Of a stretch of DNA of 64,000 bases, positions 5,816-45,931 are shown one piece after another (position 1 is the first letter of the stretch; every line of letters begins with the position of its first letter). The stretch is from Clostridia bacterium (lineage in GTDB: Bacteria; Bacillota; Clostridia; Oscillospirales; RGIG5299). The DNA lies in the NCBI GenBank assembly GCA_017504945.1, contig JAFVQJ010000013.1:14414-78413 (forward strand), read 5' to 3'. The notes beneath the pieces are model-generated. The model saw only the letters and a list, made by a program, of their open reading frames with translations, was not told where the DNA came from and made no database searches. Made by a program: the position numbers and the translations under genes.

Positions 5816-5844
5816 TTGACAATCGGGCAAAACAGTATTATAAT
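5816..5844 (+). promoter_or_regulatory. consensus sigma-A promoter driving the T-box leader
   Basis: TTGACA (5816-5821), 17-nt spacer, TATAAT (5839-5844). Confidence 0.75.
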
Positions 5845-5849
5845 GTTAT

Positions 5850-6138
5850 CGTTAAAGGCGTATGAGCGAAAACAAGTAGCCGTTTGGAGTTTTTAAGAGA
5901 GCCGTCGGTCGGTGCGAGCACGGCAAACGAAGATCGGACGAATACCTTTCGCCAGCTGCTTTCCCCAAAGGCAACGAGTAGGGAAAGACGGGTCCTTGCC
6001 CGTTACAGCATGTCGCCGCAGATCTTGGCGAACAGTCTGCGGAGAGTGAGGTCATATTCCGTAAGGATATGATAAATTGAGGTGGTAACACGTTTAACGA
6101 CGTCCTCTGTATTTTTAAATACGGGGGATGTTTTTTAT
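5850..6138 (+). promoter_or_regulatory. T-box riboswitch leader (tRNA-sensing transcription attenuator)
   Basis: The leader has an AGAGAG bay and a GGUGCGAG distal-loop motif. It has an S-turn AGUA with a GAA-UAC-C specifier region and an F-box CCGUUA (about 6000). The T-box-like sequence is GAGGUGGUAACACG (6079-6092). An 11-bp terminator stem is followed by AUGUUUUUUAUU (6104-6138). Confidence 0.8.
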
Positions 6139-18524: not shown

Positions 18525-18563
18525 TGTTGACAATTATATCAAAGTTTGATATAATTGTCAACA
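18525..18563. promoter_or_regulatory. perfect 39-bp palindrome containing two fully overlapping consensus promoters (one per strand)
   Basis: The arms are 19 bp around centre G18544. On the plus strand: TTGACA 18527-32, TGn, TATAAT 18550-55. On the minus strand: TTGACA 18561-56, TATAAT 18538-33. Confidence 0.6.
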
Positions 18564-33733: not shown

Positions 33734-34197
33734 AAAAACACCTCTTTGATCGTTCTACGTTTTTATGATAACACATAAATTATCGTTTGTCAATAACTTT
33801 TTATCATTTTTCACTATTTTATTGGCTCTATTAAACTTTATAGTTGGTGTGAATAAATCGCCAAAATATTGAATATTTGCGGTATTTTTATGCATATTTT
33901 CCTTCAATATGCGATAAATAGTATAAATATTCTCATAAAATTTTTAAAAAATTTTTTATTATAGCAGATTGGCTACAACATTGTTTATACAATTGTTTCA
34001 ATGTTCACTCCCAAAAGCATTTATCGAAATGACGTTGGGTTATGCGTTGCCGGATATAATCACTCAAAGAAAACAGATGAAGAGGTAGATTTAAAAAGCA
34101 TTTGTAACGTTAAACTTGTGAAAACTCGAAAAAATATCGTTTTATAAAGTGATTTAACCCAAAACTGAGGCATACCTCATTCAAATCGATGGTAATA

Positions 34198-34227
34198 TCT
34201 GCTAAAATTTTGTAAAATTTTAGCAGA
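34198..34227. promoter_or_regulatory. perfect 14-bp inverted repeat (candidate operator or hairpin) abutting the RBS of the HTH gene
   Basis: TCTGCTAAAATTTT-GT-AAAATTTTAGCAGA, ending 14 nt before the GTG start. Confidence 0.5.
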
Positions 34228-34241
34228 AGAGGTCGATTTAC

Positions 34242-34505
34242 GTGAGAAAACTGTCGAAAGAAATCTTGAAGGAATGGTTCAATAATCAGCTTATACAAGC
34301 AAGAGCCGAAAATAATTTTACGCAACTGCAAATGTCCGAGCTATTGTTAATGGATGAAAGGTCTTATATTGATTTGGAGCACGGCAAAACCGGATGCAGC
34401 GCATTAACCTTGGTTTTGTTTATCATTTATTTTGTTAAAGACAAAAATGAATTCTTTGATACGCTGAAAAATGAGCTCAAAAAGATAAATGAAGACGTTG
34501 CATAA
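34242..34505 (+). CDS. XRE-like helix-turn-helix protein
   Basis: 87 aa with a GTG start and a GAGG RBS. The HTH-like segment is FTQLQMSELLLMDERSYIDLEHGKT. Confidence 0.55.
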   Translation: MRKLSKEILKEWFNNQLIQARAENNFTQLQMSELLLMDERSYIDLEHGKTGCSALTLVLFIIYFVKDKNEFFDTLKNELKKINEDVA

Positions 34506-34689
34506 TACCAAAAGATCTTTACGGGAAGAAATTGAGTTCAGGATTTCTAAGCCGGTGACGGAAAGCGTTTGCTTTGTTAACGGTTACAGATACGCCGTTT
34601 GCCCGAAATGCAAAAGCACGCTTGAACGGGAATACTTAAATTATTGCGACCGTTGCGGGCAGGCGTTAGATTGGAGAAAATATAAATAA
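34489..34689 (+). CDS. small zinc-ribbon protein
   Basis: 66 aa with CPKC..(13)..CDRC. It overlaps the HTH gene by 17 nt and has no clear SD. Confidence 0.4.
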   Translation: MKTLHNTKRSLREEIEFRISKPVTESVCFVNGYRYAVCPKCKSTLEREYLNYCDRCGQALDWRKYK

Positions 34690-34746
34690 AAAATTAGCTC
34701 GAATTGCACTGCTTTCAAGAAGAAAAAATTAGCTTTACAGCACAAA

Positions 34747-34786
34747 AGAAAGAGCCTTGCTTTTTAGCAGGGCTCTTATCTTTTAA
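34747..34786. terminator. bidirectional intrinsic terminator
   Basis: 10-bp stem AGAGCCTTGC/GCAGGGCTCT between convergent genes. Confidence 0.7.
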
Positions 34787-35514
34787 TTTGCGGTGGAGGC
34801 ATTTAATTGAATATATTCTTTTCTTTTCAGTAAAACCTTTTCTATAAATTTCGGGTAAATATCGGTAACTGCAAGCAATAGGTTTGTTCCAGAAGCTGAT
34901 AATACAGCTATCAAAAGATACTGCTTATTCAAAGCAAGATTCATTGAAGGAGTTTGATCGGCCAAAAAGATTCCATAAAGTACAAAGTACAAAACAGTTA
35001 ATGCAATTACGGGAAGAATGGGAAGTAAAATATAATATCCAAGTTTTTTCACTGTTGCTTGCACTGTGGTTATAATAGTTGTTTTTCCAAAAAGGCGATT
35101 ATCTATTTGCCACAAGATAAATACAGGCAATGTAACCGACAATGCAAAAATAAATATTTGTAGCGGAACAAACACTATTCCTTCGCTCATTTTTGAAACT
35201 AAACTGCAAATTAAACCTAACATAGAGAGAAGCAAAGAATCTCTTATTATAACTAAATACTGTATTTTTTGTTTTAATACATTTTTGCAGTATAAATAAA
35301 ACAGTACAAAATATCCGGCAAAAGTTCCAAAAAACGGAAGTAAAGAACTTTCATAGTTAAAAAGAAAAGTTGCTATTTGCTTGAAGAAAAGCGGCGCACC
35401 GTTTTCATCGTCAACTATACCGTATACCAAATTTCTCAAAGGAATAGTAATAAAATATACTGACAACAGTACTAATGCATTAACTACCATTGAAATTTTA
35501 ATTATCTTTTTCAT
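34783..35514 (-). CDS. polytopic (about 7 TM) membrane protein, candidate immunity protein for the orphan Rhs toxin
   Basis: An AAGGAG RBS lies in the 17-nt gap after the orphan toxin stop. The gene is strongly hydrophobic and AT-rich. Confidence 0.55.
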   Translation of the reverse strand: MKKIIKISMVVNALVLLSVYFITIPLRNLVYGIVDDENGAPLFFKQIATFLFNYESSLLPFFGTFAGYFVLFYLYCKNVLKQKIQYLVIIRDSLLLSMLGLICSLVSKMSEGIVFVPLQIFIFALSVTLPVFILWQIDNRLFGKTTIITTVQATVKKLGYYILLPILPVIALTVLYFVLYGIFLADQTPSMNLALNKQYLLIAVLSASGTNLLLAVTDIYPKFIEKVLLKRKEYIQLNASTAN

Positions 35515-35531
35515 ATTTTACTCCTTATAAA

Positions 35532-36737
35532 TCAATAAAAGGTTTGGGTTTGAACTGGTCCATAGTATCTATGACTATATTGATAGCTTCCGTACATTTG
35601 GTCAAATACTGTAATAGCTCGCTTCTTTTTATAATATGTAGTAACCATTCTATATGACATACTTTTAATTATTGCTATATCTATATTCCCGTCTATCCCT
35701 CTAATTGAATTTTCTATATATCTATTTGTGGGTTTATAAGAGCCAATACCAGTTATAAGAACGTCTATATAAAATGAGATATTGGGAATATATGATCCTA
35801 ATAGAAGCTCTGCGCATGCTTTAAAAGGTTCTATTGCAAGGGAATTAGCGAAGTTATTTACAAAAGAAACAAAATCGTTTGCTGCTTTATATGTTTTATC
35901 AAGATAATTTCTCCATTTTTTTGCTGACATTACCTGAGTTTTTATAACAACTTCAACCCCGGCTTGAGTGCCATAGAATAATCCATTTTTTATTCTGTCA
36001 CATCCTATGTAAGCAAGATTAAGATATCCAGATTCATCATAATACATATGGCTAAAATAAAGATCATACTGTTTTAAAACCTGTGGCATTTGAAGCGGAT
36101 CTGCAATAACAAAGCTATTAGATGGTGAATAAAAATAAGTTGTACCTTGTGGATCGAAGTATACTATCGGATTATTCCCACAATATGTAAACAAATTAAA
36201 TCCTAATAAATCATCGTTAATTTGTTCGTCCTCATTAATCCACCTACCCACCTCAGGATCATAATACCTGCTGATGCAGTAATAAAATCCCGTATCGGTG
36301 TCGTAGTAATAGCCTCTGTAGCGTAAGGGATTTATAGTTCCTAAAGTAGAAGCCATAGAGCCGGTGGTAGAAAGTAGTTTACCCCAGCTATCATAGCTGT
36401 ATTCAACTACAACTGCGCCGGTGTTATCAATAATAGCTATAATATCTCCTTGTAAATTTAATACGTAGAAATATTCAACTCCATTATAGCTAATTGAAAG
36501 AGGCGCACCGTTTTCATCATAACGGAAGAAAAGCTCGTTTGTTATTACGTTATTGTTTTCAGTATACTGATGAACTATCTTACCGTTATCGTAGGTATAA
36601 CGGGTAATTCCAAAGCTATCTTGCTTTGAAACTCTTAAACCACTATCATCGTAACTATACTGCACCAAAACACCGTTTTTAGCGGTAGAAATTAGCCTTC
36701 TGCCTTCCCACGTCATAGTTCTTCCCATATAATTCAA
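35532..36737 (-). CDS. orphan Rhs C-terminal cassette (Rhs core tail + divergent toxin domain), no canonical start
   Basis: The first ~177 aa of the homologous frame (starting ITYDAIGNPL, ~29 nt upstream of 36737) are about 90% identical to residues near the end of the main Rhs core. The NNPIVYFDPQG core-end motif is followed by a unique 203-aa tail. The frame is open to about 36775 without an ATG or SD. Confidence 0.8.
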   Translation of the reverse strand: MNYMGRTMTWEGRRLISTAKNGVLVQYSYDDSGLRVSKQDSFGITRYTYDNGKIVHQYTENNNVITNELFFRYDENGAPLSISYNGVEYFYVLNLQGDIIAIIDNTGAVVVEYSYDSWGKLLSTTGSMASTLGTINPLRYRGYYYDTDTGFYYCISRYYDPEVGRWINEDEQINDDLLGFNLFTYCGNNPIVYFDPQGTTYFYSPSNSFVIADPLQMPQVLKQYDLYFSHMYYDESGYLNLAYIGCDRIKNGLFYGTQAGVEVVIKTQVMSAKKWRNYLDKTYKAANDFVSFVNNFANSLAIEPFKACAELLLGSYIPNISFYIDVLITGIGSYKPTNRYIENSIRGIDGNIDIAIIKSMSYRMVTTYYKKKRAITVFDQMYGSYQYSHRYYGPVQTQTFY

Positions 36738-36766
36738 GGGATTTCCTATTGCATCGTAGGTTATAG
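36242..36766 (-). repeat. direct repeat copy A (orphan) of the Rhs core 3' region
   Basis: It aligns with 38000-38522. I counted 17 amino-acid differences in 177 aligned codons by hand. Confidence 0.85.
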
Positions 36767-36861
36767 CTTTACATAATTATTTTACCATAATATTCTCCAA
36801 CATTCAACAAATTTTGAAAAATTTGTAAAAATATATAATGAGTAAAATTTCAAAAAAGGAA

Positions 36862-36905
36862 CAAAAACCCCGAAATTCGTAATGAGTTTCGGGGGGTTTT
36901 TGTTT
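36862..36905. terminator. bidirectional intrinsic terminator after the Rhs-immunity operon
   Basis: CCCCGAAA/TTTCGGGG stem flanked by A and T runs, 43 nt downstream of the immunity gene stop. Confidence 0.75.
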
Positions 36906-36947
36906 AAGCTAGGATTAATTCTTTTTAGTTATAGTACTTGTACCACA

Positions 36948-37316
36948 TCAACTCATCAAGTAAGTTTTAATAAAATCAACATATAAATCAACCAGTTTTA
37001 TAAATTGTTCACGTGATATTGAGTATGAGTTGTGTGGCAATAAATATATCTCCTTTAACAATTGTGAAAATTTCTTTTCCTCCCAATTTAAATTATCAAT
37101 TACAACATTATTATAACTCGTTTTTACTAACGTTTTTGTGTTTTCCCTTATTGTAAGGTCCAAAAACTCATTATAACAATCAAAATGTATGGATATGAGA
37201 AAATCATTTTTTCGAAATTGTAGTGCATAAAAGGTACTATTCTCAATAATGTTGCTATAAGAATAACCCATTTTAATTAAAAAAAGAAATTTGTGTTTAA
37301 TTATTTTTATATTCAC
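36948..37316 (-). CDS. candidate cognate immunity protein of the main Rhs toxin
   Basis: 122 aa, very AT-rich and apparently cytoplasmic. The GTG start is preceded by a GAGGGA RBS that directly follows the Rhs stop codon. Confidence 0.6.
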   Translation of the reverse strand: MNIKIIKHKFLFLIKMGYSYSNIIENSTFYALQFRKNDFLISIHFDCYNEFLDLTIRENTKTLVKTSYNNVVIDNLNWEEKKFSQLLKEIYLLPHNSYSISREQFIKLVDLYVDFIKTYLMS

Positions 37317-37326
37317 GCTAATTCCC

Positions 37327-40300
37327 TCAAAACATCTTCACATAATTGAAATAGCCATTTACTACTTGCCGTTCCATTGCATACCATCTACTGGTAATAT
37401 TAGCACCTACCGAGCCAGTATCATAGATAGGGGCGCCAAGTTTTGTCATTCTATTAATAAACGCTTTATTATGCATAAGACTGAGGTCATCCGCGAGTTG
37501 TTCCCCAATTTTAGGAATTTTTTTAATTAAGTTATATCCTTTCATTGGTTTATATGTTGTCGCATCAACAACTTGTGCCGCTTTTCCGACGCGGCTCATA
37601 TCTTCTCCTATTGCAATACCTTGTTTGGCGGTTTTAACAGCTTTAACTGCACCAATTGATGAAGAAGCAAATGCACCTATGCCACCCCACATAAATCCAT
37701 CGCAGGCCCCGTCTATCATTCCTTGGACACCACCAGTTATATATCCTGTGACAGCACCAGACAATGTGCTGGCCGCTACGCCAATCAATAATGGTGCAAC
37801 TGCACCACCAGTTGCAACTGTAATAGCAACTGCTGCAACCGTAGCCACAGCACCTATTGTAACTTTTAGCCAATTGGGCATAGACCAGTTGCCATTAGTG
37901 TCAAAACGATTAACAGGATTATTCATACAATATGCGAACATATTATATCCCTGTATTGAATCACCAACACCAGCAATTATACTATCTACATTTATAAACC
38001 TACCCACCTCGGGATCATAATATCTGCTGTTGCAATAATAGAATCCCGTATCGGTGTCGTAGTAATAGCCTCTGTAACGCAATGGGTTTACTACGCCTAA
38101 AGTGGTTGCCATTGTGCCTGTGGTAGCAATCAATTTACCCCAGCTATCGTAGGAATACTCAACTACAACGGCGCCGGTATTATCAATAATACCAATAATA
38201 TCGCCCTGTAAGTTTAATACATAGAAATATTCTACGCCATTATAGCTTACAGAAAGAGGCGCGCCGTTTTCATCATAGCGGAAGAAAAGCTCATTGCTTA
38301 TTACGTTATTGTTTTCGGTGTACTGATGAACAATTCTACCGTTATCATAAGTATAACGTGTTATACCGTTGGAATCTTGCTTGGAAAGTCTTAAACCACT
38401 ATCATCGTAACTATACTGTATTAATGCGCCATTCTTGGTGGTGGAAATTAACCTTCTGCCTTCCCACGTCATAGTTCTTCCCATATAATTTAAGGGATTT
38501 CCTATTGCATCGTAGGTTATAGTCTGTCCGTTATACGAGGTAAGAAGATCTTTCCAATCGTTGTTGGAATAACCGTAATTTTTTACACTTACAGCAGTTC
38601 CGAGAGTTTCCGCGGTTGTATAAGCATACTCACTCTTTGAAAGAATATTTCCTCCGGCATCGTAGGTGTAGGTTATGGTCTTGCTTATAAAGCCGTTATT
38701 CTCTCTTATGAGTTGACCTAACGAATCGTACACGTAGCTTACGGTGCTTGTGCCGTCGCTTATCGAGGTTATATTGCCGTTGTAATCATAGGTATAGCTG
38801 AAATTCTTAAACTGTGTGCCGGGAAGATTGATTCTGAAATTAGAAACTATACCCGATTGGAGCAGAGTATCGCCCACGATCTTCGAACGGTAGGTAAAGA
38901 GGTATTCAAGCAGTGTTACCGCGTTTTCGCCCGTTTGCTTTATAAGTGTTTTACCCGAATTTCTTCCAATTGCATCGGCGCTTGAATGGGCAAGGTAAGT
39001 TCTTTCGTTATCGCCTTCACCCTCTACGAATTTCACGGTAACGGTGCCGTCGCCGTTTTCGCCGTCCTCATAGGTGTATTCGGTTTCCTTTACGGTTCCG
39101 TTAATAACACGAGTCTGCTTTATAAGGCGGTTTTCGCTGTCGAAGGTCTGGGTAACATTGTAGCTGTAGCCCGTTCCCGAAATGGAGCTTACCTTCATTG
39201 CGGCAAGGTCGCCGTCGTAGTTATAATAATAGTTTGTCTTTAAGTTGTTACCGTTGTCTACCGTTTCAATAAGTCTGCCGAGGCTGTCGTAGGTAAATTC
39301 ATAGCGAGCATCGGTGGCATCATTTACGAAGATGGCGGTTACATTATCGTTTTCCACACCGCCTGCTACGTTGGTATCTTGGTTTGCATACTCGTAGCTT
39401 ACTTTGTAGCCGTTTCCGTAAACGGCATTATCTAAAACGCCGTTATGTAAGATATCCTTGTAGTTGTTAGTAACGAGGACTGTGCCGCCAACGGATACTT
39501 CGGTGGTCTGACCGTATTTATTGTAGTCAAAGCCGTATTCCACGCCGTTTAAGCTGGTGATCTTCGAAAGTCTGCCTTCAGTATCATACTCATAATTAAC
39601 CGAATCGTTGCCTGCAGTAATAGAGGTTACTCTGTGGTTTGAATCGTAGCTGTAGCTTACGGTATTCCCTTCATTATCTGTAGCAGAGGTAAGAAGTCCC
39701 GTTGAGAGATCGTAGTTATATGCCGTATGGGATTCCTGCAGCTCGTCGAATACCTTTGTGAGATAGTTACCGTTTGCGGTGTATTCGTTTAGTGTTTCGG
39801 TATAGTAAACAGTATCGCCCTTGGTGTGAGTCGTGCGGGAAAGCAGGGTGTTGCCGTAAGCGTCACGCGATACGGTGTTGGTCTCGGTGGTAACCGAATC
39901 GGCAGATACTCTTATTCCCGTTGTGTCGCCGTCAGACTTGGTTATATTTATTGTCTGAGTTTTTTCGGTGCCGTCTGCCTTTTTAACGGTGCGGGTAACG
40001 GAGGTCACTTCGCCGTCTTCGTTATAGGTGTAGCTGTAGGTCTCGTCGTCGAAGGTGGTCTGCTCGCTAATATAGCCCGCCGAGTTGTAGGTGTAGATCG
40101 TTCCCGCCTTTTCCTTGAATGCCTGAATGCCGTCGAAATATGCGGTGTTGCTGTTATAGTTATAGCAGAGGTAAATATCTATTGAGGTGTAGTTATTCTG
40201 TGCGGTTACGGTGCCGTAAACGTATTGCCAATCGTTTACGTAGGAGTTGAAGGACACGTAGCCTGCGGTTTTATCCGCGTCGTTCTCGGCATCGTTGAAA

Positions 40301-43300
40301 ACCACGAGGATTCCGAATCTAAGAGGAGTGTTTTCGGATACGGGAAGGGAGCTTGCTTTCGCCCAGCCGGAGAAGGTGATGGTATCGCCTGCGTTGCCCG
40401 AGCCGGAGATGGTCTGGGAGGCATACTTTTCGGCATCGACCTGTCCCGTTATTTTGAGGGCGTTTGCATCTCTGTAGTCGGAGGTGTTATCCGAGTCTGA
40501 TGCGACCGTTAACGCGGTGCCTGTCCAATTAGTTATGCCGTTATTGAAGTCGCCGTTTGAGATTATATTATCTCTTTGCGAGGCGTTATCTCCTATAGTT
40601 ACCTGGAGATCGTCAAAATATGCAATACCTTTAGCGCCGCTTGCTCCGAGATAAAGCTTTAACGTTTCGGTGCCGGTTGAGCTTGCGCCGTACTCTGCGG
40701 TTACCTTTACGCGTGTCCATTCACCCAAGGAGACTTCCTCGGATTTGGTTTTTACTATTTTATTTGCCATTTCAACGGCGATATATGCATTTACGTCGGT
40801 TGCCGCCGTTTTTATCCACGCGGAGAAGGTTATTACGGTTGCCTTATTGGCAGGGACGGTGAGATTGTAATTTGCTTCGAGAGTTGTATTATCAGTGCCC
40901 CTGGTAATCATAAAGCCGTACATGCCACTGCGGCCGCCTGCGCTTCTCATTCCGTAGTCTACCACTCCGAGTGAGGAAGAAAAAGAAACGGTTCCTTTCT
41001 CAAAGCTCGGGTCGGCTAAGAGATTTATTGTCTGGTTCTGCGGACGGGAGGATAAGGTCAGCTTATTTATACTGCCCTCGCCGTATTCTCTGCCGTAATC
41101 ATAGAAATAGCCGTTGCCGTTCTCATCTGAGGACGAGATAAGGTTTCCTCTTGAATCGAAATTCATATAGGAAATGTTGCCCTTTGAATCGGTCAACTTT
41201 GTTCTGTAGGTGGCATACTCGAAAGTTAAGGTTTCGTCTGCTTCGCTTTGCTGGTTTCCGCTGTAATAGGAAACTGTTTCAACTTTATTGTTGCTACAGG
41301 TAAATACGTATCTGTCACCCGTATCCTTGTCAATAAATGTGGTCGTTCCATTCGTAAATGAAGTATAGCTCGAAATTGCCGATTCGCTGTTACCGTTAGG
41401 TCCCACCGCAGTAAGAGGCATATTCACCGCATTAAAAGTATATGCGGTTTTCGAAATATAACCTTCTGTAGTATTAGTAATGAGCGTGTGATCAGCTACG
41501 GTATTACCGAAATACCGTATTTCCGTAAAATACAACACTGCACCGCTGTTATAGATGAATTTGTATATACGTCCCGCACCGTCTATTATGCAGTCAATAA
41601 CGTAGCCGGTGGTGTTTTTGTAATATATCTGAATTTTGTTATCCGAAACAGTAACACCTGTGCCTGCAAGTGTATTTTCGGAGTTTTTATCCGTTATTGC
41701 AACAAGTCTGCCCGAGGCATCGGTGTCGAACATATAACGCAGTCCCGAGTCGGAATGATAGCAATAATGTGTCTTGCCGTTATAGGTTACCGTTTCAAAA
41801 TATTCGCTCGGCCACGCTTCCGCTTCGTATATTCCACTTTCATTTTCGGTTATTCTTGTGGAGTATTTATCCGGTACGTAAATTCCTTTTGTAACGTCTC
41901 CGACCTTATATTGCTGCAACACGAAATACCTTTTGCTGTGTGTGCCATCGATATATTCAATATAATTTTCGCTACCTATGGTCTTAAGGGTAATATGCTG
42001 ATGGTAGTTTGTTTTTACAAACATACCGATATTGTAGGTCATCCAGCCGATATTGTTACCAAAAACCATATTTATTGAAACCGGCAAAATGTTTCCGTCA
42101 TAGCCTATATCATTTCTTATTACGGTAAGACTTCCGGAAAACGGATTTATATATGCCGTTCCCGCAGAGCCCATATCCACGGTATAGCTCGGATTATCCG
42201 TAAGTCCGCTTACGTTTCTGTATGCAAAGTAAATGCAAGGACGGCGGTTTTCGGTGCCGTATTCCGCAGATCTGAAGGTTGCATAATTGCCGGACTCTTC
42301 GGTGCGGTATTTGAGCATAAAGCCAAGGTTATTGTCTTCCGATTCATACCATTTGTTTACGAGGGTAGTTACGTCGAAATAGTAATATTCCGGCGCAGTC
42401 ATTTCACAGCTGTCGATTACTGCTGTTTCATAATCCGGTTTATTGTTCCAGTTTATACTGTTATACGTAAAGGTCGATTTGATATTGTGAAGCTCGGCAT
42501 ATCCGCTTCCGTTATAGTTTGTGCGCCAGATCTTGAGCTCTGCTTTTATAAGCACGTCGCCTGCGGCAAGGGTGGGCAGATAATCCTGGTTGAACTTCAT
42601 ATAGGTTCTGTTTATGCCGCGACCCTCACAGCCCATTCTTAAGAAGTTCTGATTCCAATAATTTAAGGTAGGATAGCCCGAGGCAACGGTAACGTCCTGC
42701 ATTACGTCGCTTCCCGTTCCGCCGGTTACGGTGGGATCTACGGTTACGGGATATACTCGGTCATCGGAAGAAAGCCATTCGTATGCCGGCGTGTAGGTGA
42801 GTATGTATTTGTTTTTCGAGGAAGTGGGAGATAACGTTACGGAGATATCGTCGGAATACTCTCCGTTTGCATCCTCCATAAAGGGCGCGTAGATCGTAAA
42901 GAAAACTTCGCCCGTGCTTCTGTCCGAGAAGGTAAGGCTTCCGTCGTCGTAAAGAGTGGCGACCAAGCCGTGAGTGTTTATCTCATAGGAATAGCCCGTT
43001 TCCCTTTCGGGCATTTTGTTAAGTATTATCTCTTCCTTTAGCTCATTGCTCTTTATGGTATACGCTATATCCGTATCCTTGAAGGTGTTTTTGTAATTGA
43101 GCTTGGAATATATCTTACTGCTTACGTCGGTCTTATCCGTGCTGCGAGATGCTTTAGAGGCTATTTTGCCCTCTGCGGCATTGGCGTTTAAGAGCTTGAA
43201 GGTAAGCTTTGCATTATTTTTTGATACGGATATTTCAGAACCGTTGTTTAGCTGATTGGGCAGCTCTACCGAGAAAGAGTTATCTTTATTCTTAAAGGTA

Positions 43301-43656
43301 TTTGTCTTTTCATCGGCAACAACGGAGTTATCTATTTCCTTCCAGCTTCCGTTTTCGAGATAATGCACCGCCTCGGGATACATTACGGCGATCATTATTC
43401 CTTCCTCGGTATTAAAATGCTTTACCGATTCTTCACGGAGTGAAATATCTTCATCTGTTATAGTAAGATCTTCAAAATCTATATTTTCGTAATCCAGGTA
43501 GGTGTTTACAACGTTTTGCTTTTTTGAAGAATTATTAGCTTTTTCGGAAGTTTCAAAGGTTATTCCTGCTTGCGCAAAGCCCTGTATTGCAAGCGTTACG
43601 AACAAGGTAACGCTGATGAGCAGTGCACAGGATTTCTTTAGTAACCTGATAAACAT
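37327..43656 (-). CDS. Rhs/YD-repeat polymorphic toxin, WapA-like (Sec signal peptide)
   Basis: 2109 aa with a signal peptide ending AQA. A DNRLRE-like N-domain and two CBM4_9-like jelly-roll modules (NGDFNNGITNW .. AYFDGIQ) come first. Dozens of YD repeats follow. The Rhs core tail is PLRYRGYYYDTDTGFYYCNSRYYDPEVGRF .. NPVNRFDTNG, and a 185-aa C-terminal domain ends the protein. Confidence 0.95.
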   Translation of the reverse strand: MFIRLLKKSCALLISVTLFVTLAIQGFAQAGITFETSEKANNSSKKQNVVNTYLDYENIDFEDLTITDEDISLREESVKHFNTEEGIMIAVMYPEAVHYLENGSWKEIDNSVVADEKTNTFKNKDNSFSVELPNQLNNGSEISVSKNNAKLTFKLLNANAAEGKIASKASRSTDKTDVSSKIYSKLNYKNTFKDTDIAYTIKSNELKEEIILNKMPERETGYSYEINTHGLVATLYDDGSLTFSDRSTGEVFFTIYAPFMEDANGEYSDDISVTLSPTSSKNKYILTYTPAYEWLSSDDRVYPVTVDPTVTGGTGSDVMQDVTVASGYPTLNYWNQNFLRMGCEGRGINRTYMKFNQDYLPTLAAGDVLIKAELKIWRTNYNGSGYAELHNIKSTFTYNSINWNNKPDYETAVIDSCEMTAPEYYYFDVTTLVNKWYESEDNNLGFMLKYRTEESGNYATFRSAEYGTENRRPCIYFAYRNVSGLTDNPSYTVDMGSAGTAYINPFSGSLTVIRNDIGYDGNILPVSINMVFGNNIGWMTYNIGMFVKTNYHQHITLKTIGSENYIEYIDGTHSKRYFVLQQYKVGDVTKGIYVPDKYSTRITENESGIYEAEAWPSEYFETVTYNGKTHYCYHSDSGLRYMFDTDASGRLVAITDKNSENTLAGTGVTVSDNKIQIYYKNTTGYVIDCIIDGAGRIYKFIYNSGAVLYFTEIRYFGNTVADHTLITNTTEGYISKTAYTFNAVNMPLTAVGPNGNSESAISSYTSFTNGTTTFIDKDTGDRYVFTCSNNKVETVSYYSGNQQSEADETLTFEYATYRTKLTDSKGNISYMNFDSRGNLISSSDENGNGYFYDYGREYGEGSINKLTLSSRPQNQTINLLADPSFEKGTVSFSSSLGVVDYGMRSAGGRSGMYGFMITRGTDNTTLEANYNLTVPANKATVITFSAWIKTAATDVNAYIAVEMANKIVKTKSEEVSLGEWTRVKVTAEYGASSTGTETLKLYLGASGAKGIAYFDDLQVTIGDNASQRDNIISNGDFNNGITNWTGTALTVASDSDNTSDYRDANALKITGQVDAEKYASQTISGSGNAGDTITFSGWAKASSLPVSENTPLRFGILVVFNDAENDADKTAGYVSFNSYVNDWQYVYGTVTAQNNYTSIDIYLCYNYNSNTAYFDGIQAFKEKAGTIYTYNSAGYISEQTTFDDETYSYTYNEDGEVTSVTRTVKKADGTEKTQTINITKSDGDTTGIRVSADSVTTETNTVSRDAYGNTLLSRTTHTKGDTVYYTETLNEYTANGNYLTKVFDELQESHTAYNYDLSTGLLTSATDNEGNTVSYSYDSNHRVTSITAGNDSVNYEYDTEGRLSKITSLNGVEYGFDYNKYGQTTEVSVGGTVLVTNNYKDILHNGVLDNAVYGNGYKVSYEYANQDTNVAGGVENDNVTAIFVNDATDARYEFTYDSLGRLIETVDNGNNLKTNYYYNYDGDLAAMKVSSISGTGYSYNVTQTFDSENRLIKQTRVINGTVKETEYTYEDGENGDGTVTVKFVEGEGDNERTYLAHSSADAIGRNSGKTLIKQTGENAVTLLEYLFTYRSKIVGDTLLQSGIVSNFRINLPGTQFKNFSYTYDYNGNITSISDGTSTVSYVYDSLGQLIRENNGFISKTITYTYDAGGNILSKSEYAYTTAETLGTAVSVKNYGYSNNDWKDLLTSYNGQTITYDAIGNPLNYMGRTMTWEGRRLISTTKNGALIQYSYDDSGLRLSKQDSNGITRYTYDNGRIVHQYTENNNVISNELFFRYDENGAPLSVSYNGVEYFYVLNLQGDIIGIIDNTGAVVVEYSYDSWGKLIATTGTMATTLGVVNPLRYRGYYYDTDTGFYYCNSRYYDPEVGRFINVDSIIAGVGDSIQGYNMFAYCMNNPVNRFDTNGNWSMPNWLKVTIGAVATVAAVAITVATGGAVAPLLIGVAASTLSGAVTGYITGGVQGMIDGACDGFMWGGIGAFASSSIGAVKAVKTAKQGIAIGEDMSRVGKAAQVVDATTYKPMKGYNLIKKIPKIGEQLADDLSLMHNKAFINRMTKLGAPIYDTGSVGANITSRWYAMERQVVNGYFNYVKMF
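38000..38522 (-). repeat. direct repeat copy B (inside the main Rhs gene)
   Basis: Partner of 36242-36766. Confidence 0.85.
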
Positions 43657-43794
43657 GATGATTTTCCTTTCTTTTATGATATTTTCTCGTTGTCGTTTGT
43701 TATAAAGATAGCTATATAATCCTTTTTTTCACCTCCTTTTTTAAATATTGAATTCTTGCTCCGGTTCAACCATATTTATTCCTCCTTTTTAATT

Positions 43795-43856
43795 CATAAA
43801 AATAAAACAGACGCACTTGCCCTTTTCTGAATTGAAAGAAAGGCAGTACGTCTGTC
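43795..43856 (-). terminator. intrinsic terminator inside the Rhs 5' leader (T2)
   Basis: A long imperfect stem (CAGACG..ACUGCCUUU / AAAGGGCA..CGUCUG) is followed by UUUUAUUUUAU on the minus strand, about 140 nt before the Rhs ATG. Confidence 0.7.
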
Positions 43857-44064
43857 TCATGCGTGAGAAATGTGGAATTATTAATTTGTTTTTGCTATTG
43901 CGACCTTCACAATGTTCCCGCCGTCTTACAGCAATGATTCTGCTCTGAGGCAGTTTCACCCGAACGGCAACTACCTTTCCACATATAAATAATTAACTGC
44001 TGTTATTTTCTGAACTACACTATGGTTCATTGGTTGTCTTGATTTAACTTTTTTGGTTATTTCT
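43857..44064 (-). promoter_or_regulatory. structured leader RNA (candidate riboswitch/attenuator aptamer region)
   Basis: A 115-nt domain (43870-43984) is closed by the 8-bp helix AUGUGGAA/UUCCACAU. GGAAAGGUAGU (43970-43980) can instead pair over 11 bp with the terminator arm ACUGCCUUUCU (43837-43847). Confidence 0.45.
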
Positions 44065-44070
44065 ACCATA

Positions 44071-44100
44071 ATTATACTATACCGCACTCGGTTTTGTCAA
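44071..44100 (-). promoter_or_regulatory. sigma-A promoter P2 (minus strand)
   Basis: TTGACA (44100-44095), 18-nt spacer, TATAAT (44076-44071). Confidence 0.65.
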
Positions 44101-44115
44101 GGGTTGTATTATGCC

Positions 44116-44190
44116 GAAAAAGGAAAAATAAAAAGCACTCTGCAATAAATCCCATAGGCTCCAATTGCCAAGCGAAATATTGCAGAGTGT
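44116..44190 (-). terminator. intrinsic terminator T1 (minus strand)
   Basis: A 12-13-bp perfect stem CACUCUGCAAUA/UAUUGCAGAGUG has a 30-nt loop. It is followed by CUUUUUAUUUUUCCUUUUU. Confidence 0.65.
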
Positions 44191-44200
44191 TCTTGTCATT

Positions 44201-44280
44201 ATGATCCACCTTTATGCAGGAGTGGGGCCCTGGACATAAACGATTCGCCTTTATACAGGAGCGAAACCCTGAACATTAAA
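44201..44280 (-). repeat. tandem imperfect repeat (2 units, 39-40 nt) each able to fold as an H-type pseudoknot
   Basis: Unit A (44241-44280) and unit B (44201-44240) share UGUyCAGGG..CUCCUGyAUAAAGG..AUC. The loop to 3'-tail pairings are UUCGCU:GGCGAA in A and CCACU:GGUGG in B. Confidence 0.6.
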
Positions 44281-44290
44281 GCTTAAGAAG

Positions 44291-44319
44291 ATTATACCAT
44301 ACTATACAGTGTGTGTAAA
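44291..44319 (-). promoter_or_regulatory. sigma-A promoter P1 with extended -10 (minus strand)
   Basis: TTTACA (44319-44314), 17-nt spacer ending in TGG, TATAAT (44296-44291). Confidence 0.6.
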
Positions 44320-44537
44320 TAAATGGAATTTTTGGAGAAATTTCCATAAAAACCTCAACTGATTCATTTCAATGATATCTCGGTTACAATATAATCCTCT
44401 TCCCATTTTCTATGGTTTTTGCTTCATCTGTAAAAGAACCAACACCGTAAACATCATCATGATTTAAAATACCGATCCATCAGTTTGTACTAGGGCACTA
44501 TTAAAACAATATTTTCCGAGATTCATTGTAAATTTTG

Positions 44538-44586
44538 AGGGCTTATTTTATTCGAAACTTTTTTGCAAAAAGCCCTTTTATTTGTC
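44538..44586 (+). terminator. possible intrinsic terminator insulating rmuC from the island
   Basis: A 7-bp stem AGGGCTT/AAGCCCT with a large 25-nt loop, followed by TTTTATTTG. The evidence is weak. Confidence 0.35.
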
Positions 44587-44644
44587 TTAAATATCTGTTA
44601 TAATATTATAATGTATAATTATATTTTGTTTGAGGAGAAGCTTT

Positions 44645-45931
44645 ATGGAATATCTTGCCGTTATACTTTCGGCTCTTGCCTGCCTTTTGTCTGCCGCGGC
44701 GCTTGTTGCGGTGCTTACCAAAAAGCAAAAGAGCAACGCCGATGAGATAAAAAGAATAGTGAGCGAGCAGTCAAGAGCAGACGGCGAAGCGCTCGACAGC
44801 AAGCTCAAATACATACTCACCGCGCAGGGTGAGGCAAACCGCACCTTAAGCGAAAATCAAAGCGCCTCGATGGAAACTCTTCGTAAGACCGTTTCCGATC
44901 TTTCCAACTCGATGGAGGGCAGATTCAAGACCTTTTCCGAATCGAACGAAAAGAGTCTTAACGCCATTAAGGAAAATACCGAAAAAAGCATTGACGGTAT
45001 GAAAAAGGAAAACGAGGCAAAGTTAAACGAAATAAAGATAGTTGTTGACGAAAAGCTTCAAAAGACTTTAAACGAGCGCTTTGCGCAGTCCTTTAACACC
45101 GTTTCCGAAAGACTTGAGGCGGTGCAGAAGGGGCTTGGCGAGATGCAGTCGCTCGCTTCAAACGTGGGCGACCTCAAAAACGCTCTTTTAAACGTAAAAA
45201 CGAGCGGAAATATGGGCGAGATACAGCTTGAGAGCATTCTCACCGAAATACTCCCCCAAAAGCTTTGGGAAAAGCAGTTTGCGGTAAGCAAGGGCAGTCT
45301 TGACCGCGTCGACTTCGTTATCAAGCTCCCCGGAAGCGCAAACGTTCCCGTTTATCTTCCCATCGACTCCAAGTTCCCCGTTATAACCTATAACAGTCTT
45401 CTTGCCGCCTACGAAACGGGCGACAAGGCGGCTGTCGACGCCGCTCGCAAGGAGCTTGCAAGAGCGCTCAAGGCGCAGGCTAAATCAATAAAGGAAAAAT
45501 ATATAGAGCCTCCCGTTACCACCGATTTTGCAATCATGTTCCTCCCCTCCGAGGGGCTTTATGCCGAGGCGGCAAAGAGCGAGCTTATAGAAACGCTTAT
45601 GCACGATTATAAAATAAACGTCTGCGGTCCCTCTACCGTTGCCGCGCTTCTTAACAGCTTGCAGATGGGATTCAGCACACTTGAGATACAGAAGCGCTCA
45701 AGTGAGGTGTGGGGCATTCTCGGCGCCGTCAAAACGGAGTTTGACAAATTCGGCGGTCTTCTTGAAAAAACGCAGAAAAAGCTTGACGACGCAAGCAAGG
45801 ACCTCGATACTCTTATAGGCACCCGTTCAAGAATGATACGTTCAAAGTTGAGGGGCGTTTCTGCGCTTGACGAGGGCGAATCGAAAAGGTTGCTTGACAT
45901 CACGCCCGACAGCGACGTAGAGGAAGAATAA
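44645..45931 (+). CDS. rmuC: DNA recombination protein RmuC
   Basis: It has an N-terminal TM helix, a long coiled-coil and a RmuC-like C-terminal nuclease-fold region (VDFVIKLP .. LPIDSKFP). The start at MEYLAV has a GAGGAG RBS. Confidence 0.85.
   Translation: MEYLAVILSALACLLSAAALVAVLTKKQKSNADEIKRIVSEQSRADGEALDSKLKYILTAQGEANRTLSENQSASMETLRKTVSDLSNSMEGRFKTFSESNEKSLNAIKENTEKSIDGMKKENEAKLNEIKIVVDEKLQKTLNERFAQSFNTVSERLEAVQKGLGEMQSLASNVGDLKNALLNVKTSGNMGEIQLESILTEILPQKLWEKQFAVSKGSLDRVDFVIKLPGSANVPVYLPIDSKFPVITYNSLLAAYETGDKAAVDAARKELARALKAQAKSIKEKYIEPPVTTDFAIMFLPSEGLYAEAAKSELIETLMHDYKINVCGPSTVAALLNSLQMGFSTLEIQKRSSEVWGILGAVKTEFDKFGGLLEKTQKKLDDASKDLDTLIGTRSRMIRSKLRGVSALDEGESKRLLDITPDSDVEEE

Follow-up and report, generated by a model that had tools for sequence, protein, structure and literature searches.

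What decides whether the Rhs toxin gene at this locus, from an uncultured bacterium of the rumen, is transcribed? To our knowledge, the control of Rhs/WapA-type toxin expression in Gram-positive bacteria is poorly understood. We analysed a window of 64,000 nucleotides, the whole stretch of DNA presented above. A preliminary description had proposed that transcription into the toxin gene is gated by a riboswitch-like attenuator between a promoter and the Rhs start codon. All of the sequence features that it listed were found in place on the minus strand. These, and further elements of the region, are given below in the order of transcription.

44124-44189, minus strand: hairpin with a 12-bp stem and a U-run, just upstream of the Rhs promoter, folded and conserved in a homologous locus (L009)
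44071-44100, minus strand: sigma-A-type promoter TTGACA-18-TATAAT, 12/12 consensus match, start predicted near 44064
43968-43995, minus strand: 28-nt block UAAUUAUUUaUaUGUGGAAAGGUAGUUG, 26/28 identical to L009, including the antiterminator 5′ strand GGAAAGGUAGU (43970-43980)
43870-43984, minus strand: 115-nt domain, closed in the minimum free energy (MFE) structure by the helix AUGUGGAA (43977-43984)/UUCCACAU (43870-43877)
43969-43976 with 43948-43955, minus strand: extension of the domain helix in the MFE structure, AGGUAGUU with AACUGCCU
43837-43847, minus strand: antiterminator 3′ strand ACUGCCUUUCU, within the terminator 5′ arm, pairing with 43970-43980
43797-43860, minus strand: intrinsic terminator with a ~20-bp bulged stem, 6-nt loop and U-tract UUUUAUUUUU, -30.8 kcal/mol
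43741-43790, minus strand: strong Shine-Dalgarno (SD) sequence AAAAAGGAGG (43781-43790) and 10-codon upstream open reading frame (uORF) MVEPEQEFNI* (43741-43773), directly after the terminator
43728-43739, minus strand: perfect SD-like sequence without a usable start codon (orphan SD), AAAGGAGGUGAA, adjoining the uORF stop, invariant in L009
37327-43656, minus strand: Rhs polymorphic toxin gene, 2109 aa, with an N-terminal signal-peptide-like segment (Pfam RHS_repeat, E = 6e-26)

The gene sits on a 10.7-kb island (window 33824-44542). Rumen-metagenome contigs share the neighbouring genes RmuC, RodA/FtsW, BacA and FtsK, and the island is missing from two syntenic contigs with flanks ~98-99% identical (L001, L005). 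It is bounded by the direct repeat AATAAAATA, and no recognisable recombinase was found within 33824-44542. Besides Rhs, the island encodes a 122-aa putative immunity gene, an orphan Rhs C-terminal module, a membrane protein and an XRE-type HTH gene. The entire 890-nt non-coding region upstream of Rhs lies inside. Hence, the regulatory region belongs to a toxin island that varies between strains. The other contigs with the island are 100% identical over the compared stretches (L002-L004, L007, L008) or have the same gene order (L051-L054), and so add no information. The orphan module follows the main Rhs/immunity pair and has its own downstream membrane protein (35532-36737). At 36242-36766 (526 nt) it is 86% identical to positions 37998-38522 of the main Rhs gene. 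Such duplicated Rhs segments are the usual substrate for toxin-tip swapping.

The promoter claimed at 44100-44071 matches the consensus at every position. Exact consensus promoters occur seven times in the 64-kb window, against 0.02 expected. One lies directly upstream of a T-box leader (RF00230, 101 bits; 5816-6110, plus strand, the T-box itself occupying 5852-6110). Hence, the organism uses this consensus promoter. The near-palindrome TTGACAATTATATCAAAGTTTGATATAAT at 18527-18561 contains overlapping perfect consensus promoters, one on each strand, that look like a divergent pair. The leader has the form first described: ~265 nt from ~44064, ending in a hairpin and U-run, with the Rhs ATG 140 nt further downstream. 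Folding 43790-44064 gives an MFE of -68.7 kcal/mol (z = -3.97), which none of 200 shuffles equalled.

To gauge conservation, we compared Rhs loci. The full Rhs protein was scanned against one genome per GTDB species, which gave 17 loci. The homologues belong to Acutalibacteraceae/Eubacteriales MAGs and include two close relatives, L009 and L010. A homologous leader was found at L009 only, where Rhs is 70% identical overall. At 4-fold degenerate third positions of Rhs, the window and L009 are 52% identical (n = 511), so neutral sites are near saturation. The promoter region is 35/42 identical from -35 to +6. No change is seen in either hexamer or in the spacer segment AGTGCGGTATAG; the L009 spacer is 17 nt long. 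The uORF with the SD-like sequence that follows it is 42/58 identical, and the Rhs SD and start region 25/31. Leader segment 44050-44010 is only 0-50% identical. Overall, the L009 leader is ~170 nt long and folds with z = -2.97. Computation shows that leader elements are under purifying selection, and that the alternative pairings set out below are energetically plausible in two lineages.

The second close relative, L010, has an 89% identical Rhs N-terminus and no leader. Its upstream region is unrelated, consisting of a plain extended -10 promoter and SD beside a serine-recombinase-like gene. The breakpoint falls inside the signal-peptide codons. Between the serine-recombinase-like gene and the replaced Rhs promoter are four GCCATTTTGGCAA-like motif copies (L010 9640-9770). 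This arrangement suggests that the L010 toxin is carried by a mobile element that has an operator or iteron array of its own.

Wider searches were made for further leaders. At the more distant Rhs loci the leader is absent and upstream regions are short and ordinary. Scanning metagenome contigs with an alignment of three Rhs N-termini gave one 29%-identical fragment and nothing closer. In viral contigs, pattern scans for the hairpin, terminator, antiterminator block, uORF with SD and tandem repeat returned nothing or the estimated chance number. Plasmids and phages gave no blastn match. A covariance model built from the two leaders detected no further member in ~300 kb of related loci; its best other match (L022, E = 0.049) was rejected as a generic terminator. 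Protein searches with the Rhs N-terminus returned only ~30% identical relatives (maximum 32%). The window's own Rhs is in that collection yet was not returned, so an absence of close relatives there is untrustworthy. Since all other searches added none, the comparative evidence consists of two sequences.

We then considered the terminator. The stem at 43860-43797 has ~20 bp and one bulge before UUUUAUUUUU, and is absent from the list of a simple terminator scanner. Its 5′ arm begins ~200-220 nt downstream of the predicted start near 44064. The L009 counterpart has a folding energy of -24.2 kcal/mol and the U-tract UUUUUUGUUUUU. Within the 5′ arm, GACGUACUGCCUUU (43839-43852) is identical at 14/14 positions. 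The 3′ arm and U-tract are identical at 17/20. Here the leaders differ (GGGCAAGUG versus AGGUCAGUG) and the bulge is shifted, while the 5′ arm, which has two possible partners, is invariant.

The alternative partner is the antiterminator strand. An 11-bp complementarity between GGAAAGGUAGU and ACUGCCUUUCU had been claimed; it is present, and nowhere else does the upstream leader pair more stably with the terminator 5′ arm (-22.4 kcal/mol); 0.5% of 1000 dinucleotide shuffles do as well (p ~0.005). L009 retains the pairing and lengthens it to 14 bp (-17.7 kcal/mol, p ~0.002 against shuffles). In both leaders, the strongest upstream partner of the terminator 5′ arm lies in the 28-nt block. Strand and partner are both invariant between these two sequences, which fits pairing but also any other constraint. 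Before the terminator 3′ arm is made, the antiterminator pairing probability is ~0.8 for the window and ~1.0 for L009. For both, it falls to 0 in the complete RNA, where the terminator takes over entirely. Hence, the proposed mutual exclusivity of antiterminator and terminator was borne out: the ensemble switches once the 3′ arm is present. The leader has the marks of an intrinsic-terminator attenuator, namely a hairpin and U-tract before an open reading frame, and a conserved upstream strand that can sequester the hairpin. The whole 28-nt block (43968-43995) is a candidate site for a trans-acting factor.

The 115-nt domain behaves differently. In the window, the 8-bp closing helix was recovered in the MFE structure of 43790-44064. 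The ACUGCCU noted inside the domain also takes part: GGUAGUU pairs with AACUGCC there, extending the closing helix. The domain interior (~43960-43870) is 0-50% identical to L009, among the least conserved parts of the leader. The domain is ~116 nt long in the window versus ~66 nt in L009, where both internal hairpins are missing. The L009 closing helix, GUG.GG/CC.CAC, has five pairs and a mismatch. Three of the eight pairs are lost, including two A-U pairs, and one A-U pair has become G-C by a double change. In place of ACUGCC, GGUAGU of L009 pairs with an internal ACUAUU. Hence, of the helix conservation on which the preliminary description had staked its proposal, one leader keeps the promoter, antiterminator and terminator, but the closing helix loses three pairs. 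An aptamer core is normally the most conserved part of a riboswitch. The conservation in sequence and structure that marks metabolite riboswitches among homologues is not seen here, and the OFF-riboswitch reading is not supported by this unconserved, 50-nt shorter interior and the loss of both internal hairpins.

The domain may nonetheless matter for folding in the window. Before the terminator 3′ arm is made, the window state with the closing helix (P1) is near-isoenergetic with the antiterminator state (-44.3 versus -45.3 kcal/mol). For L009 the corresponding values are -16.0 and -22.1 kcal/mol, with a P1 probability of 0. In these models the 115-nt domain acts as an anti-antiterminator in the window. 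Because the L009 anti-antiterminator is weak, the default state may not be the same for the two leaders, or they may not share the switch logic. The window default is likely termination, since P1 would form first and leave no free toehold. The L009 default looks like read-through unless the conserved block is occupied.

Downstream of the terminator, the 140-nt stretch before the Rhs ATG has the length first given to it. It is no simple gap, as it holds the uORF and orphan SD. The L009 uORF, MDEPSQSFNI*, is equally long and stops at the corresponding position; its Q and F codons carry synonymous changes. The orphan AAAGGAGGUGAA has no canonical start codon at a suitable distance, and its 11-mer occurs twice in the window versus 0.03 expected. 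AGGAUU, 8 nt further on, is conserved too. The SD of Rhs itself is modest (GAAAGG, 43666-43671). The only promoter-like site between the terminator and the ATG (43703-43676, 9/12) loses its -10 in L009, and no conserved promoter was found in this interval between the window and L009. Hence, Rhs appears to depend on read-through from the promoter at 44100. Within the terminator 5′ arm, CCUUUCUUU (43835-43843) is complementary at 9/9 positions to the Rhs SD region AAAGAAAGG (43666-43674). This complementarity is lost in L009. CCUUUCUUU also resembles the 3′ end of 16S rRNA.

A parallel for the orphan SD exists in Bacillus thuringiensis. There, the toxin gene cry3A carries a STAB-SD, an SD-complementary 5′ stabiliser of the mRNA that does not direct initiation (PMC4113751). 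Both elements are perfect SD-like sequences without a start codon, ~75 nt before the start codon of a toxin gene with a long 5′ UTR. The likeness covers 43728-43739 alone and not the attenuator; furthermore, the element here follows a uORF. By analogy, the orphan SD may be an mRNA stabiliser of the STAB-SD type.

Upstream of the promoter, the hairpin and U-run at 44189-44124 are identical to L009 in 53/67 columns, against the 52% neutral level. Homology between the two upstream regions starts at the base of this hairpin. In L009 it is preceded by the C-terminus of an open reading frame that we take, by eye, to be tyrS-like. The hairpin is probably a terminator shielding the Rhs cassette from upstream transcription. 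Further upstream in the window is a second promoter, TTTACA-17-TATAAT with TG (44319-44291, minus strand), then two tandem 39-nt repeats (44198-44319). The repeats read CAGGG-N5-CUCCUG-YAUAAAGG-N4-AUC and each can form a compact H-type pseudoknot. Two compensatory changes separate the copies in the loop-tail helix (UUCGC:GCGAA versus CCAC:GUGG), and the unit ends at the conserved hairpin 44189-44124. The unit at 44198-44319 has no Rfam match, is absent from L009 and has no viral-contig match. A small RNA or a tandem riboswitch-like element is conceivable here, and the unit looks at least as aptamer-like as the leader with the 115-nt domain.

Does the leader belong to a known family? The earlier failure to place it held up: Rfam 15 gave no match for the leader at or near the gathering threshold, and at gathering the whole window yields only the T-box at 5852-6110. 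With E up to 10, the best models for 43795-44100 were caiA (21.7 versus a required 55.5 bits) and ssnA (16.7 versus 37.3). Flanking hairpin matches across the searched 43400-44700 were similarly far below gathering. The L009 region has no match in common except a generic hairpin on the upstream hairpin. A plus-strand SurA match (20.5 bits versus 100) was dismissed as terminator symmetry. T-box leaders share with this one a Firmicute setting and competition between antiterminator and terminator, and the antiterminator strand here contains GUGGA. However, the T-box model has no match in 43400-44700 at E up to 10 while scoring 101 bits at 5852-6110, and the ~45 nt upstream of the L009 antiterminator are too short for Stem I.

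Further candidates were rejected. Leader-peptide attenuation would use a 32-codon frame from the ATG at 44068-44066 to the UAG of GGAAAGGUAGU. This ATG lies only 3 nt past the -10, and the frame is not conserved, with L009 indels that are not multiples of three. A 56-aa open reading frame starting with GTG (43789-43959) has no SD, and L009 lacks this stretch of the leader. A stem-loop at the 5′ terminus, UGGUA...UACCA, is probably partly upstream of the start site. By-eye inspection for the motifs of RAT, ANTAR, TRAP, PyrR and HutP sites revealed none.

The closest known systems are protein-mediated attenuators. In Firmicutes, the trp leader with TRAP and the pyr leader with PyrR decide between terminator and antiterminator in this way. 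The likeness extends to the sigma-A promoter, an untranslated leader, a terminator 5′ arm that pairs with an upstream antiterminator strand, and a decision taken during RNA synthesis. In each, the deciding strand is the most conserved leader segment. Unlike those leaders, this one has no (G/U)AG repeats or PyrR binding loop (by eye), and the downstream gene encodes a secreted Rhs toxin rather than a biosynthetic operon. Transcriptional OFF riboswitches share the mutually exclusive P1, antiterminator and terminator of the window sequence, but the leader here has no conserved aptamer and no Rfam 15 match. Many Firmicute 5′ UTRs contain terminator-based attenuators whose effectors are unknown. 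Hence, the kind of attenuator is already known, while this leader matches no described family. We found no report in the full-text literature of attenuation or a riboswitch before an Rhs/WapA-type gene.

Our best explanation, held with moderate confidence from the sequence comparison, is that the Rhs 5′ leader contains a terminator-based transcription attenuator, within a conserved cassette that travels with the toxin gene. The best-supported order of this cassette is insulating hairpin, consensus promoter, attenuator, uORF, orphan SD and Rhs with its modest SD. Of the attenuator logic first proposed, the order of promoter, leader, terminator and Rhs stands, as does the exclusivity of antiterminator and terminator. 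The riboswitch does not, and the closing helix is only partly kept. The promoter, the antiterminator/terminator leader and the mini-gene probably limit the amount of toxin mRNA. The attenuator is lineage-restricted, being confined to two MAG lineages as far as found, with the close relative L010 lacking it.

Briefly, we envisage the following sequence of events. From the consensus promoter, RNA polymerase would begin transcription near 44064, and ~220 nt further on the 5′ arm of the terminator would emerge. Were GGAAAGGUAGU to pair with ACUGCCUUUCU, the terminator would be blocked and transcription could continue into the uORF, orphan SD and Rhs. Were GGAAAGGUAGU unavailable, the terminator would form and a ~265-nt leader RNA would be released. 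In the window, GGAAAGGUAGU could be held in P1 and the P1-extension helix; alternatively, a factor on the 28-nt block could cover it. Termination and read-through, and their regulation, are what we infer from the folding models. The antiterminator strand and its AU-rich 5′ flank are conserved and the domain interior is not. Hence, a trans-acting factor or folding kinetics is favoured over a metabolite. The trigger is most likely an RNA-binding protein, 30S subunit or small RNA acting in trans on the conserved block; alternatively, folding kinetics alone may suffice. Metabolite binding by the 115-nt domain appears unlikely on these patterns of conservation.

Attenuation has to be weighed against other readings, and two observations tell against it. 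The strong anti-antiterminator of the window has a weak counterpart in L009 (-16.0 versus -22.1 kcal/mol), and the near-identical Rhs of L010 has a simple promoter and no leader. One rival is a constitutive partial terminator that lowers and fixes the toxin mRNA level, or leaves a stable RNA as by-product, the antiterminator tuning the leak without any sensing. Such a device needs no conserved sensing domain, and none is conserved; the almost always formed L009 antiterminator would simply give a fixed outcome, and L010 manages without the leader. However, the 28-nt block is conserved well past the 11 nt needed for pairing, and the window P1 and antiterminator states are within 1 kcal/mol of each other, as a switch would show. 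We regard a constitutive terminator as unlikely, though worth keeping in mind. An independent small RNA gene running from the promoter at 44100 to ~43800, whose product would act on the Rhs mRNA or in trans while Rhs is transcribed on its own, is a distinctly doubtful proposition. It would account for the complete unit from promoter to terminator, the product of which is strongly structured (z = -3.97 and -2.97 in window and L009), and for the 9/9 match of CCUUUCUUU to 43666-43674 in the window. Against this, that complementarity is lost in L009, no conserved promoter follows the terminator, and the unit was found only directly upstream of this Rhs.

Two readings seem still harder to sustain. 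A metabolite-binding OFF riboswitch, with the 115-nt domain (43870-43984) as its aptamer, would explain the closed multi-hairpin domain of the MFE structure and the exclusivity of P1, antiterminator and terminator; as no known family matches, it would be new. Yet its interior is least conserved, 50 nt shorter and without either internal hairpin in L009, and 3/8 closing pairs are lost, so that we consider it very unlikely. The conserved blocks might instead be DNA operators, for instance for the XRE-type HTH protein (34242-34505) encoded in the island. The promoter spacer is conserved and the motif GTATAGTAT is common to the promoters at 44100 and 44319. But operators leave unexplained why two conserved blocks 120 nt apart are significantly complementary and adjoin a U-tract, and the antiterminator block contains no palindrome. 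Hence, we think this extremely improbable.

If the attenuator is genuine, how far might its significance reach? In the boldest version, which we put forward tentatively and think rather unlikely, it would be a new attenuator class for a polymorphic toxin, in which a trans signal on the 28-nt block licenses transcription of a Sec-exported Rhs toxin. Candidates for the signal would include a GGA-binding protein of the CsrA type, free 30S subunits that recognise GGAAAGG as SD-like, or a small RNA that reports on competition or stress. In this version, the downstream uORF and orphan SD would cooperate with the attenuator. Should read-through prove constitutive, the leader would amount to another leaky terminator among those of Firmicute 5′ UTRs. 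Should it be conditional, this rumen commensal would have a checkpoint, acting after initiation, on a toxin mRNA that is costly at 6.3 kb, and the 28-nt block would be a direct handle for finding the regulator. Because it lies on a strain-variable island and is replaceable, as in L010, the cassette illustrates the modular exchange of regulatory regions with toxin genes.
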